Of a DNA stretch of 20,000 nt, positions 6,908-17,794 are shown piece after piece. How positions within the stretch are numbered: position 1 is the first letter of the stretch; every line of letters begins with the position of its first letter. The notes beneath the pieces are model-generated. The model worked only from the letters and a program-made list of their open reading frames with translations, made no database searches and had not been told where the DNA came from. Where the stretch lies: the IMG/VR virus record IMGVR_UViG_3300026250_000004. One strand, 5' to 3'. This stretch comes from an uncultured virus (IMG/VR IMGVR_UViG_3300026250_000004). Taxonomy: Duplodnaviria; Heunggongvirae; Uroviricota; Caudoviricetes. The position numbers and the translations under genes are program-made.

Positions 6908-8512
6908 TTACCAATTTATTGAAACACCGCAAATATCGGGCATCATCGAGTGTTCAAAGTCTGTCTCAACCGTTGTTATCAAGCTAACTGCCATCTGTAA
7001 GGCATCAGCTTCATCATCAGTTCGCCATTTGCCCAAATAGCAAAGTTCTTGTATCAGTTCTCTTTGTGACCGATGCAAGCGCAAATAACCATTCTTTAGC
7101 AACGGCATTAAGCCCATGATTCGCAAAACCTTATCTGTTGTCGGCTTAATTTCTATGATGTTAAGATAAACTCCACGCTTTGCCGATGCTTGCCGTAAGT
7201 TATGAGCAAATAACTCTTGAAACTGTACTGTCTCACAACCAAACTGCTGAAACGGATATTGAACGGCATAACCTAAAATGTCATTAATGATTATATCTGG
7301 ATGTCGTCTTTTGCCATCTGATTCAATAACATACATATAACCTGCTTCGTCTTTAGCAATTATCGCTATAGCACTCTTGTCTGACCTTCTGGTTTTCCCC
7401 ATACTGGGGTCTACCGCGCCCACTATGGCACATTTGCTTAAATCAGGTAGTGCATCATAGTAAACTATTTCATCTTCGCGTATAGGGCAATCTGCGGGGT
7501 TAATAGGCTCATTCTGAACCTCACTATTGAATGATGCTATGCCTTCATCAATTATCATCACGCGGTAGTCATAGTAAGTTACTTTTTCAGGCCATAAGAC
7601 TTGAACGCCATTAAGCAATTCTTCTTTGTTTTGCTCATAAAAAGACCGGGCTGTTTCCACCCGGTTAATGTCGTCTAAATTGGTATATAATCGTTCCCAT
7701 TCTGCCCATAAGCCTGAATGAGACTCGCTGATTACACCTTGATATTTCTTTGTCTTAAATCCTGGTCGTCTTAATAGCTTCGATAGCAGACTGTCATAAT
7801 GTAAAATCGTTCCAATCACGATTATATCTGTCTTTTCGTCACCTGCTTTACTGATGGCTTTATCAAACCAAGACTCTAACTTTTTGCGCTGGTCCTCGCT
7901 TTCCACATTCTCATCATTTTCGGCATCGTCAATGATAAACAGGTCTGGTCTAAAATTCTTATGCTTTAATCCGCGAATAGCTTTGCCTGAGCCTTTGGCG
8001 GCTAATTTAACATCATTCTTTAGCAGTATTTCATCCATTCTCCATGTAGAACCTTGAAGTTTACCAAAGTCTTGAATTATAGCCTCATTGCCTGCTATTT
8101 CTTCTTTTATGTTGCCTAAATAACTTTCTGCTTGTCCGCTACTGTCTGAAATTAGAATTATAAACCGCTTTTTACGGTATAAGGCACACCATAAAGGGAG
8201 AATGAAGTCCCACAAAGTAGTTTTAGCACTGCCACGGGGACTAGCTATCGCAACTTTATTACCACCTTTACCGTTGACTATCGTTTCCATAAGGTCATAC
8301 ATTTCCAAGTGAAAGTCTGGAATAGCACTCGTAAAATATTGGGGGTAGTATGCTCGTGCGAAGAAGCAAATATCTATCTGCCCTAGTTCACGCCTTATGC
8401 CATTCGGACCATATAGTTTTTTATCGGCTAAAATAGTTTCTATTTCCTCTTGTGAAAAGTATTTCGGCAAATATTCAAATACTAGGTCTATTAAATACTG
8501 CTCATAATCCAT
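6908..8512 (-). CDS. terL: Terminase large subunit
   Basis: Walker A-like PRGSAKTT, IRG..RPDLFIIDD Walker B, GTILH coupling motif, nuclease domain GAVDPS..DKSA..DDEADA. Start placed at ATG 8512 (RBS GGCAGGTGA) rather than GTG 8548. Confidence 0.95.
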   Translation of the reverse strand: MDYEQYLIDLVFEYLPKYFSQEEIETILADKKLYGPNGIRRELGQIDICFFARAYYPQYFTSAIPDFHLEMYDLMETIVNGKGGNKVAIASPRGSAKTTLWDFILPLWCALYRKKRFIILISDSSGQAESYLGNIKEEIAGNEAIIQDFGKLQGSTWRMDEILLKNDVKLAAKGSGKAIRGLKHKNFRPDLFIIDDAENDENVESEDQRKKLESWFDKAISKAGDEKTDIIVIGTILHYDSLLSKLLRRPGFKTKKYQGVISESHSGLWAEWERLYTNLDDINRVETARSFYEQNKEELLNGVQVLWPEKVTYYDYRVMIIDEGIASFNSEVQNEPINPADCPIREDEIVYYDALPDLSKCAIVGAVDPSMGKTRRSDKSAIAIIAKDEAGYMYVIESDGKRRHPDIIINDILGYAVQYPFQQFGCETVQFQELFAHNLRQASAKRGVYLNIIEIKPTTDKVLRIMGLMPLLKNGYLRLHRSQRELIQELCYLGKWRTDDEADALQMAVSLITTVETDFEHSMMPDICGVSINW

Positions 8513-8616
8513 GTAATCACCTGCCAATATAACAAATAATTTACGCACAAACGCCTATATATATGGGTTTATGCCCTTGCAAGCGACATAAATGTCGGTA
8601 GCAAACCTTGCCCAAA

Positions 8617-8945: not shown

Positions 8946-8967
8946 GTTGTCCCTCCTAGTTTTGATA

Positions 8968-9044
8968 TGGAGCCGGATGCAGGACTCGAACCCGTCAACT
9001 TACCGCTTACAGGGCGGTTACTCTACCAATTGAGTTAATCCGGC
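8968..9044 (-). tRNA. tRNA-Thr(UGU), atypical (C33, irregular T-stem), encoded CCA
   Basis: Minus strand GCCGGAT TA ACTC AATTGGTA GAGT A ACCGC CCTGTAA GCGGT AAGTTG ACGGG TTCGAGT CCTGC ATCCGGC T CCA folds as a cloverleaf. Confidence 0.85.
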
Positions 9045-9047
9045 ATA

Positions 9048-9340
9048 AAAAGGTGGTTTTTAACGAGTGCTTGTCAACCAGCGACGATGCAGGCATCATC
9101 CCTGTAACCACCCCATAACAAGCACCCGCCAACCGAATAGGCAGAATACAATAACTTTCGCAAACGTAATTCTGTGCGCATCCTATCGGTTGCAATATGC
9201 AGACAACGCTTTCGCGCTGCCAGGAACCTTTTGTACGCATGGCACATAGGCAAATCGCCCTTAATACGGTGTTGCCTAATGGTCAGCACCAATATTAACA
9301 GCGATATATAGTCAAATCCCTTTCGGGTATCTGCTATCAA
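9048..9340 (-). ncRNA. Highly structured ~290-nt RNA candidate with a 3' pseudoknot, immediately 5' of the tRNA
   Basis: At least five long helices with G-U pairs, two clear GAAA tetraloops, and a 9-bp loop-to-tail pairing (9106-9114 with 9050-9058). Confidence 0.65.
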
Positions 9341-9464
9341 TGGTTTTTAAACGACTCCTCATCTGCTTTTTCCCTAACCGCTTATTTCGCTTCCGCTGTT
9401 TACCACTTTTACCGTGGTTGAAACACGAATAACATTGCTCATGTTTCATTGCAAAGGCTCGCAT
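9312..9464 (-). CDS. Small basic hypothetical protein (50 aa)
   Basis: RBS GGGGGTGAT then ATG; MRAFAMKHEQCYSCFNHGKSGKQRKRNKRLGKKQMRSRLKTIDSRYPKGI. Confidence 0.5.
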   Translation of the reverse strand: MRAFAMKHEQCYSCFNHGKSGKQRKRNKRLGKKQMRSRLKTIDSRYPKGI

Positions 9465-9511
9465 AATATCACCCCCGTTAGAAGGCGACCACCCCCTTTT
9501 ATAAACTACTA

Positions 9512-10765
9512 TTAATTAGTTATTACTGGTGTATTTATGATGTTGGTTAATCCTAATTCTTTGTCATAAATAAATGTCTGTGCTTTCCTAACTGCCCCGA
9601 CATAACCAGAAGTATAATGCCAATGGTCGGTTGCTGTCGGTGAAGCTATACGCCTAATAATTACACCGTTAATCTCAACTATGGCATGTTCGCTATGCAA
9701 GTGCGCTGTGTGCATTTCGTTGTATTTAGCTTTACCCCATAATTCTTTTGCTTCAATCGGCATTAGAGCAGATAGTCTGTTCGCTTTTTCTTTATCACCA
9801 TGAGTAAAACCAATAAGAGTGTTACCATACAACATGTATTTTCGTGCCATTGGTGAAGTGTCTATTTCTACATTGTTGTCATTTCGGAACCATGCTTCCA
9901 AGTATTTAAGAGCATGATAACCTGTCATTTCATCATGGTTACTTGCCGTGTAGAAGGTTTTAACTGGTGCAATAGCTGAAAACAAAGTGATGGCTTCTAC
10001 AAGCATTTCAACCCCTTTGTTAAATAACTTTTGCCAACGAATATCTACGCTTTGTTGCGTTCCTGCTGTAGTTGTATTGGTTATCGTATCGCAGTTAAAA
10101 AAATCATTTGCCCATACAAAGGTTATGTAATCCAAGTCTCTAGACAGTTCGCTATAAATCCTTGTGGTTATATCTCTAAATACCTGCATAGCTATTTTAT
10201 AATCAAAGTTATTGCCTGTATCGCCCACCCAGCAAAGTTTTCCCAAGTGTAAATCAGCTATGTTTATTTCTGCCATGCGATTACGCTTCGGTTGTGGTTT
10301 TGACTTGATGTTAATTGGCATAACGAATTTTCTGTCTAACTGCTCAAAATGTTTATCTATTTCTTCAAGCGATAAGCCTTGCTTTTTCGGCTTAACCGTT
10401 AGTTTTGACTGATAGAGAGTTAATGTTTTGTTCTCTTTAGTCTGGTTTTGCCAAAAGTTGTTACGGTATGATATAACTTCCCATAAATCCTTTTTAAGTC
10501 CGTGTTTCTCCATCATCAATTCAGGTGTTATTTCTTCAAGATGGCTAATTTCAATGATTCGCTCTGATATGCTGTCACCATTTGCTTTGTATTCAAAACT
10601 ACCTTTAGTGTCTGTAGGGGGTGTATCGGTTGTTGCATTTTGCTTAATGTTGCTCTTTATCCAACGCCTTAAACTTCGTTCGTTTCTGCCTGTAGCCCGT
10701 GCTATTCCTGCTACAGTACCATGTTCTTCTAGCAATCTATTGTATTCTTCAACCGTAAGGCTCAA
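9512..10765 (-). CDS. Calcineurin-like metallophosphoesterase with N-terminal HTH
   Basis: Motifs DLHLG, ANDFFN, SNHD, HGD, AHLH; N-terminal TVAGIARATGRNERSLRRW helix-turn-helix. Confidence 0.85.
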   Translation of the reverse strand: MSLTVEEYNRLLEEHGTVAGIARATGRNERSLRRWIKSNIKQNATTDTPPTDTKGSFEYKANGDSISERIIEISHLEEITPELMMEKHGLKKDLWEVISYRNNFWQNQTKENKTLTLYQSKLTVKPKKQGLSLEEIDKHFEQLDRKFVMPINIKSKPQPKRNRMAEINIADLHLGKLCWVGDTGNNFDYKIAMQVFRDITTRIYSELSRDLDYITFVWANDFFNCDTITNTTTAGTQQSVDIRWQKLFNKGVEMLVEAITLFSAIAPVKTFYTASNHDEMTGYHALKYLEAWFRNDNNVEIDTSPMARKYMLYGNTLIGFTHGDKEKANRLSALMPIEAKELWGKAKYNEMHTAHLHSEHAIVEINGVIIRRIASPTATDHWHYTSGYVGAVRKAQTFIYDKELGLTNIINTPVITN

Positions 10766-13350: not shown

Positions 13351-13425
13351 TGCCTACAAATAACAAAGGGCTTATATCAGGCAGTAGGCATCTGCTTTTC
13401 GGGAGCTACCCTAGATATAAGCCCT
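13351..13425 (-). ncRNA. C4/c4-2-like structured RNA element (copy 1) with downstream complementary target
   Basis: AGGGCTTATATC TAGGGTAGCTCC CGAAAA GCAGATGCCTACTGC CT GATATAAGCCCT three-way junction; loop TGCCTAC is complementary to GTAGGCA at 13351-13357. Confidence 0.6.
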
Positions 13426-13442: not shown

Positions 13443-13643
13443 TTAAAAACCTAACTTCCGTTTAATCCTTTTCCAAAAGGAAACATTCTTCTCGATTATC
13501 ACGACAATCGGCTCTCCTGCCATCACCTTAGCTTCGATGAACTCCTGCAAGTCTGAAAGCAACTGCTCATAGTCTTTCTCTTCTCGCTTTACCGAAAGGG
13601 GAATTATTTTACATCGCTGATTCAATCCATCTGCCTTCTTCAT
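13443..13643 (-). CDS. Hypothetical protein (66 aa)
   Basis: ORF with RBS GGTGGAG, overlapping the end of the GGQ gene. Confidence 0.5.
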   Translation of the reverse strand: MKKADGLNQRCKIIPLSVKREEKDYEQLLSDLQEFIEAKVMAGEPIVVIIEKNVSFWKRIKRKLGF

Positions 13644-13971
13644 CTCGCATCTCCACCTTTAAATTCTCTGGTTGCATAGAACTCTCTACTTCCTGCTTTA
13701 TATCTGCTAATCTGCCCAACCTTTTAGCAACCTCTAGCTTGTACCACTTCTGGAATATCTCTGTTTCGACGCAACGCTTAAAAGCTGTCTGCTGATTATG
13801 CAACCTAGAACGACCTTCTTCGCTTTTGCCAACTGCACCGGATTCAACATGTGTTATACGGCAACAATTTTCAGTTTTGTTTCTCTTTTGGCCTCCCTTG
13901 CCTGTACCACGATAATAGTCAATCCTAAAATCCTTTTTTGTTACCGAAAATAATGGTTGCTTGTTTTCCAT
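13609..13971 (-). CDS. Peptide chain release factor-like GGQ domain protein (ArfB/YaeJ-like peptidyl-tRNA hydrolase domain)
   Basis: DFRIDYYRGTGKGGQKRNKTENCCRITHVESG...GRSRLHNQQTAFKR matches RF domain 3. Confidence 0.85.
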   Translation of the reverse strand: MENKQPLFSVTKKDFRIDYYRGTGKGGQKRNKTENCCRITHVESGAVGKSEEGRSRLHNQQTAFKRCVETEIFQKWYKLEVAKRLGRLADIKQEVESSMQPENLKVEMRDEEGRWIESAM

Positions 13972-16575: not shown

Positions 16576-16654
16576 CAGCCTTAAAATATTTAAACGGGCA
16601 GGCGGCAAGGCTAACCGCTTTTCGGCCCGGATGATCAGTCCAGACCTAGCCCGC
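16576..16654 (-). ncRNA. C4/c4-2-like structured RNA element (copy 2) upstream of the replication initiator
   Basis: GCGGGC TAG GTCTGGA CTGATCA TCCGGGC CGAAAA GCGGT TAGCCT TGCCGC CT GCCCGT; loop TAGCCTT is complementary to AAGGCTG at 16576-16582. Confidence 0.6.
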
Positions 16655-16665
16655 AAAAATGCATA

Positions 16666-17738: not shown

Positions 17739-17794
17739 CGCAGAGTGACGGGCCATCCGGCCCGGTAATGCGGCAAGCCGGTCACAAGCCCGGC
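17739..17794 (+). ncRNA. Twister self-cleaving ribozyme, circularly permuted (P5-type topology)
   Basis: CGCA GA GUGA CGGGCC-AUCC-GGCCCG G UAA UGCG GC AA GCCGG UCAC AA GC CCGGC: P1, P2, P4, pseudoknots T1 and T2, the conserved UAA and the catalytic GA are all present. Confidence 0.88.

Follow-up and report, generated by a model that had tools for sequence, protein, structure and literature searches.

GOLLD and ROOL are phage-encoded RNAs that lie near tRNA islands, contain pseudoknots and carry variable regions. According to the study describing them, many GOLLD RNAs exceed 800 nt, GOLLD, ROOL and OLE multimerise, and palindromic kissing loops occur in OLE and GOLLD (10.1101/2024.12.08.627333). 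Theta ribozymes are HDV-like, small, pseudoknotted RNAs that adjoin phage tRNAs; they are reported to cleave at the tRNA 3' end and to have their catalytic C at the first J4/2 position (PMC10879173). The type III antitoxins ToxI, CptI and TenpI consist of repeats between a promoter and a terminator upstream of the toxin gene (PMC12283969). Phage TE carries pseudo-ToxI, a tandem repeat of one unit, and its description reports that this non-coding RNA mimics a type III antitoxin, changes by recombination and lets the phage escape abortive infection (PMC3475682). The abiF RNA (Rfam RF03085) is a small imperfect protein-binding hairpin, and the abiF-motif RNA RCd22 is reported to bind and neutralise the AbiF toxin directly, in cis and in trans (10.1101/2025.04.15.648962). 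An abiF RNA is also reported from the genome of cyanophage S-CREM1, with no claim of a decoy role in the available sections of that paper (PMC9964418).

The locus considered here is a structured stretch of ~290 nt on the minus strand (9048..9340) of 20,000 nt of phage DNA, the whole of which is referred to as the window. It adjoins a tRNA gene, with 5 nt separating the 3' strand of its pseudoknot from tRNA-Thr(UGU), and it sits in a tRNA island just ahead of the terminase gene, in the same orientation as the late genes (Table 1). Terminase, portal and major head genes lie downstream and an exonuclease-family gene lies upstream, all on the minus strand. The 50-aa ORF (9464-9312) that runs into the first hairpin has a 79% identical homolog in one related locus (L266) and was assigned to neither a Pfam nor a PHROG family. 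Among named relatives, the terminase comes closest to those of Clostridium, Crassaminicella, Dehalobacter and Paenibacillus (45-48% identity), which makes a Bacillota host probable. Of the records searched, the nearest (G001) is identical to the window over 8960-9520. The region was also found in two bioreactor RNA libraries, only as contigs that span neighbouring genes as well, and these therefore establish neither transcription nor RNA ends. A consensus scan found no promoter near H1.

Other features of the window are worth recording. A hairpin followed by a U-run was seen by eye ahead of the terminase gene (8645-8617, minus strand), with similar ones in L008, L183, L184 and L268; it is absent from the terminator-scan list. 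Rfam places a Type-P5 twister ribozyme at 17739-17793 (plus strand, 67.4 bits) and, at the ends of genes, two int-alpA RNA motifs that exceed the gathering score (16579-16656 and 13353-13421, both minus strand). A stand-alone RF-1-domain protein, possibly a ribosome-rescue factor, is encoded at 13609-13971 (minus strand).

Table 1. Modules of the structured stretch and neighbouring genes in the window
Feature	Position	Strand	Description
H1 module	9337-9308	-	Hairpin; conserved base with bulged A, variable tip
H2 module	9305-9254	-	Long hairpin; in the window only among 17 mapped loci
X module	9251-9226	-	Hairpin with 1x2 A/AA internal loop
H3	9221-9202	-	GNRA hairpin; second hairpin of X module; sequence free between copies
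H4 module	9193-9130 (helix 9192-9130)	-	Long stem; 7-nt bulge 9181-9175, exchangeable 23-nt tip
H5 module	9129-9050	-	Pseudoknot; outer stem 9129-9116/9076-9063, second stem 9114-9106/9058-9050
H5 inner hairpin	9100-9083	-	Loop CCUG
tRNA-Thr(UGU)	9044-8968	-	tRNA gene
50-aa ORF	9312..9464	-	Basic; stop codon within 3' strand of H1
Upstream gene	9512..10765	-	PHROG 704 'DNA repair exonuclease' family
Terminase large subunit	6908..8548	-	First gene of downstream packaging and head block

The initial annotation proposed an ornate RNA with five helices (H1-H5) and a terminal pseudoknot. All five helices and the pseudoknot are found in the sequence, and the proposal of structured RNA on the minus strand is upheld by folding energy, by helix covariation in homologs and by retention of the pseudoknot. 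For the minus strand the folding energy is -112 kcal/mol (z -5.13), equalled by 0 of 200 shuffles; the plus strand has a z of -1.50 and is equalled by 17 of 200. The computed fold also contains a hairpin that had not been listed, X. Folded singly against 300 shuffles each, with boundaries picked after the fact, the modules score -7.1 (H1), -5.35 (H2), -4.5 (H3), -3.8 (H5), -2.9 (H4) and -1.5 (X). H4 and the directly adjoining H5 form a unit of about 145 nt in the window and about 142-190 nt over all copies, and the H4 tip reaches up to 91 nt in relatives. No Rfam family matches the stretch at E<=1, nor 9040-9520 at E<=10.

Homolog loci were gathered by protein-anchored searches and DNA patterns, and chance rows were removed by eye. 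These accounted for 5/8, 1/8, 4/9, 11/14 and 5/5 rows in successive pattern scans and for 116 of 120 among the matches listed in another, several being coding look-alikes. The loose H1 pattern gave chance matches too, and only H1 copies read by eye were counted. The result is six distinct H4 loci: the window, L008 (near-identical to L263), L166/L268, L259, L265 and L266. In local alignment their flanks have little common sequence, the exception being the upstream ORF region, which the window and L266 have in common. H5 positions were taken from a model (R1) run over 41 sources, in which it matched only its five training elements. When the stretch was compared with named phages by BLAST, the best 20 of 243 matches included tRNA hits, and the search without the tRNA gave two weak matches; plasmids gave none.

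Across the five H5 copies, 97.2% of cells are paired, with both-side changes at 9 of 29 pairs; five of these lie in the inner hairpin, and the three outer-stem pairs and one pseudoknot pair all owe their changes to L266, so that those two helices rest on one divergent sequence. This covariation was reached by 0 of 500 shuffles, and slid controls were at most 57% paired. The CCUG loop, which is outside the finding patterns, is invariant in 5/5 copies. A reading of the pseudoknot as a CCA-end mimic was considered unlikely: ACCA is present in 5/5 copies, but it is internal and paired. Both-side changes affect 3 of 10 pairs in H1, over nine aligned copies that leave out the L266 copy with its ~60-nt tip, and 2 of 9 pairs in X over seven phage copies, in all of which a second hairpin follows. 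In H4, the 5' strand and bulge look invariant mainly because the search patterns fixed them, and only L008 was found independently, via terminase. Three motifs that belong to no Rfam family, H4-H5, H1 and X-H3, are supported by covariation. The homologs keep no common reading frame through H4 and the pseudoknot, and the overlapping ORFs were for that reason rejected as the source of the signal.

The near-repeats at 9354-9341 and 9066-9054, which had been thought to flank the element, are present but at chance level: at 250-330 nt spacing the window contains 22 exact 9-mer pairs and 7 exact 10-mer pairs. As boundaries they were rejected, the upstream copy being coding sequence of the 50-aa ORF, whose L266 homolog lacks the repeat.

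So, is this one RNA or several? A single ornate RNA of ~290 nt, as first envisaged, is not supported: the orders and combinations of the modules differ in other phages. H1 occurs without H4 in L004, L048, L051, L052 and L178; in L004 it is followed by a different module, and in L051 the order is H1, tRNA-like element, X. Hairpin X precedes H4 in the window, follows the pseudoknot in L259 and L268, and has neither H1 nor H4 nearby in L176 and L181. The gap between H1 and H4 is filled by other modules in L008, L268, L266 and L259; it is a 7-nt spacer in L265 and measures 79-120 nt elsewhere. A second, circularly permuted H1 with a U-run directly precedes tRNA-Thr in L048 and L052. L184 resembles L008 minus about 760 nt, with the junction inside two similar stem ends, and one wastewater contig (likeness 80) has the same ORF end, then H1 and directly the start of a tRNA-like element. 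The stretch is very probably an array of cassettes, small RNA modules that each fold on their own and that related phages gain, lose and reorder.

Within this array, H4 and the H5 pseudoknot immediately behind it make up the most stable unit. It is preceded by H1, which lies upstream of H4 in 6/6 H4 loci (spacer 7 to 120 nt); H4 directly adjoins the pseudoknot in five of the six. In L008, H4 is followed by a long stem like the outer stem of H5, without the CCUG loop or a clear pseudoknot, which R1 does not match. Both H1 and H4 have fixed bases and exchangeable tips.

What follows the pseudoknot also varies. Only the window has a true tRNA there; the place is taken by a long tRNA-like element in L266, by X in L259 and L268, and by other sequence in L265. 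As in general tRNA processing, cleavage of the tRNA precursor by RNase P may free the 3' end of the window RNA. Such release was part of the initial proposal. As a defining feature it is not supported: the pseudoknot directly precedes a true tRNA in one of five copies and a tRNA-like element in one more, and release by RNase P is no family trait.

Further elements recur in these arrays. Some are long and tRNA-shaped, with ends like those of tRNA-Leu/Ser around a large middle that varies; they are found at L008 3859-3980, L004 5398-5537, L051 114-235 and L266 1192-1345, and in L268/L301, L183 and L184; none was called by ARAGORN or Rfam. A module of ~80 nt between H1 and the next element is common to L004 (5315-5395) and L266 (915-995), and by eye it has an apparent covarying pseudoknot. 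Another module of the H1-H4 gap is common to L008 (3560-3645) and L268, where it lies upstream of H4, and differs in inner sequence.

The mosaic organisation also bears on the kinship with GOLLD or ROOL suggested initially. Like these RNAs, the array is phage-encoded, lies near a tRNA island and has a pseudoknot and variable regions. However, their covariance models find no match at E<=1 in the window, at E<=10 over 9040-9520 or at E<=1 in 10 homolog loci, and whereas GOLLD and ROOL are held in one fold, modules of the window type are reshuffled; kinship is not borne out. The array, at 290 nt with a stable unit of half that length, is also far smaller than many GOLLD RNAs, and multimerisation has as its counterpart here only the computed self-pairing of the H4 bulge.

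In 2/6 H4 loci, the tip of H4 is occupied by abiF, once as an Rfam match and once as a variant linked by BLAST. The L263/L008 tip scores 38.1 bits against a gathering score of 37, barely over the cut-off. On an Exiguobacterium plasmid, the L266 tip matches an RNA situated 29 nt ahead of an Abi_2 gene, and the plasmid RNA itself scores as abiF. Rfam does not list the L266 variant, or a variant in phage phiNIT1, as abiF, and its model has 0 matches in the window and in G001. Unlike abiF RNAs in the usual position, those of the relatives sit inside a larger stem of the array, with no abiF gene directly behind them. The Abi_2 domain (PF07751) is absent from G001, G002 and G007, all of them incomplete, and was found on the control plasmid; this toxin-gene search covered one of the two abiF-bearing records, the L008 record being 37% complete. 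We infer that abiF carried in a phage array with no accompanying toxin gene would most simply be a decoy.

A 53-nt abiF-like query from the L266 tip matched 78 named phage records at E<=1, including 35 from Bacillus and 29 from Staphylococcus phages, and the best 30 of the 78 were looked at individually. Among these records are many lytic phages of Bacillus, Staphylococcus and Lactobacillus, with the abiF-like piece between genes. That of phiNIT1 (L296 2501-2538) is intergenic and within a tRNA island, and the complete phiNIT1 genome has no Abi_2 gene (PF07751). These pieces in cultured phages are candidate orphan antitoxin decoys. In Acinetobacter phage Acj61, an abiF of 58 bits lies about 1.9 kb from the tRNA cluster.

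We put at roughly 45% the probability that the array as a whole is an exchangeable set of protein-binding RNA decoys against host defences, a reading that draws largely on analogy. The array would be transcribed together with the tRNA during infection, and its modules would tie up anti-phage effectors of the host, in the manner of pseudo-ToxI in phage TE. H4 would serve as a display stem for a captured load at its tip, the window version, without abiF, presumably carrying a different load, and H1, X-H3 and the pseudoknot may be further decoys, or stabilising frames, for other systems. This extension to H1, X and the pseudoknot is a further step of inference. H1 and X resemble abiF in size and build, being short imperfect hairpins with fixed bulges and free tips. 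The array is like pseudo-ToxI in being phage non-coding RNA that changes by recombination, but pseudo-ToxI repeats one unit, whereas the array strings together and exchanges unlike modules. It also differs from the type III antitoxins, since each module is single-copy and is followed by the tRNA and phage genes. Set beside the H-type pseudoknot with an A-rich stretch of type III antitoxins, the H5 pseudoknot has a short A-rich linker, a 13-14-bp stem and an extra hairpin, and shows one compensatory change only.

The surroundings of X in L176, directly behind a Tad2-like anti-defence gene, give a weak hint of a decoy role, but X is also found after a portal-region gene and ahead of a topoisomerase gene, places without a link to defence. 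In pattern and BLAST searches, none of H1, H2, X, H4 and H5 turned up next to a toxin gene in a host. BLAST searches of plasmids with the window, L268 and L178 gave nothing useful, the exact H4 pattern, the one scan that took in Bacillota genomes, had 0 true matches among 5 rows in the genome collection, and there were 0 copies of X in 903 genomes and of H5 in 151, all from non-Bacillota phyla and thus of little power.

Two X-like copies are present on the Bacillus velezensis plasmid NZ_CP076292.1 (BLAST E 0.3). They belong to an apparent small RNA (L300 2945-3075) in which the two X-like hairpins alternate with two others that have an inner motif in common; it closes with a U-run and matches no Rfam family at gathering level. 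A weak H1-like hairpin (L299 1990-2035, BLAST E about 1) lies between two ORFs of an unannotated record that read like grpE and dnaK.

Are the modules instead processing or stability signals of the late transcript and tRNA precursor, with abiF an occasional passenger? They could provide RNase III or RNase P sites, and the pseudoknot could block 3' exonucleases. The modules do sit between same-strand genes and tRNAs, the pseudoknot has a tRNA (window) or a tRNA-like element (L266) as its neighbour, and the permuted H1 of L048 and L052 is placed directly before tRNA-Thr. However, H4-H5 is also found in two loci whose available DNA shows no tRNA, L259 and L265, several modules in a row exceed processing needs, and unpaired letters that never vary, such as those of the CCUG loop, point to specific binding. 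We regard such a role as unlikely.

The constancy of the H1-H4 order and of the H4-pseudoknot junction would also be expected if H1...H4-H5 were one integral small ornate scaffold with variable insertion domains. Such a scaffold might dimerise via the self-complementary H4 bulge, whose self-pairing is computed at -9.5 kcal/mol and which recalls the kissing loops of OLE and GOLLD. Yet H1 does without H4 in the five loci named above, the minimum-energy fold contains no helix joining H1 to the 3' part, and the invariance of the bulge was largely built in by the search patterns; we find an integral scaffold quite improbable.

A ribozyme of a new class in H4-H5, helping to cut the precursor by self-cleavage, is more improbable still. 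The stem order of H5 resembles HDV P1-P2-P3, and hence the three-stem order of the theta ribozymes beside phage tRNAs, and a twister-P5 ribozyme occurs in the same window. Against this, the H5 linker at the position of the catalytic C starts with U in 5/5 copies, H5 has longer stems and no nested second pseudoknot, the element lies 5' of the tRNA and not at its 3' end, and Rfam matched no ribozyme family in the stretch or the homolog loci. Incidental structure, from coding constraint, DNA-level repeats or chance, is largely refuted: both strands of the stretch are overlapped by ORFs of 45-88 aa and H1 covers the stop codon of a conserved ORF, but the fold is strand-biased (z -5.1), shuffles and slid controls fall short of the observed covariation and pairing (97%), and landmark spacings among the five H4-H5 copies differ by non-multiples of three.

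The decoy reading can be taken one step further, to a tRNA-island library of exchangeable RNA decoys in which H1, X-H3 and H5 would each mimic the RNA partner of an undescribed RNA-controlled defence system; this we consider doubtful. Our literature search, which covered few subscription papers, found no paper claiming orphan abiF decoys or decoy arrays. The searched files of a large catalogue of viral structured RNAs (PMC10690425) have no match to the motifs, which its alignment archives or one further table may already contain.

The non-coding DNA of phage tRNA islands is mostly without an assigned function. That one slot of the array is filled in relatives by the AbiF antitoxin RNA makes the decoy idea testable with cultured phages and laboratory strains, and should it fail, three covarying RNA motifs without an Rfam family would be left. 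If it holds, arrays of this kind would be a non-coding counterpart of anti-defence gene clusters, and their modules could be used as baits to discover RNA-regulated defence systems.
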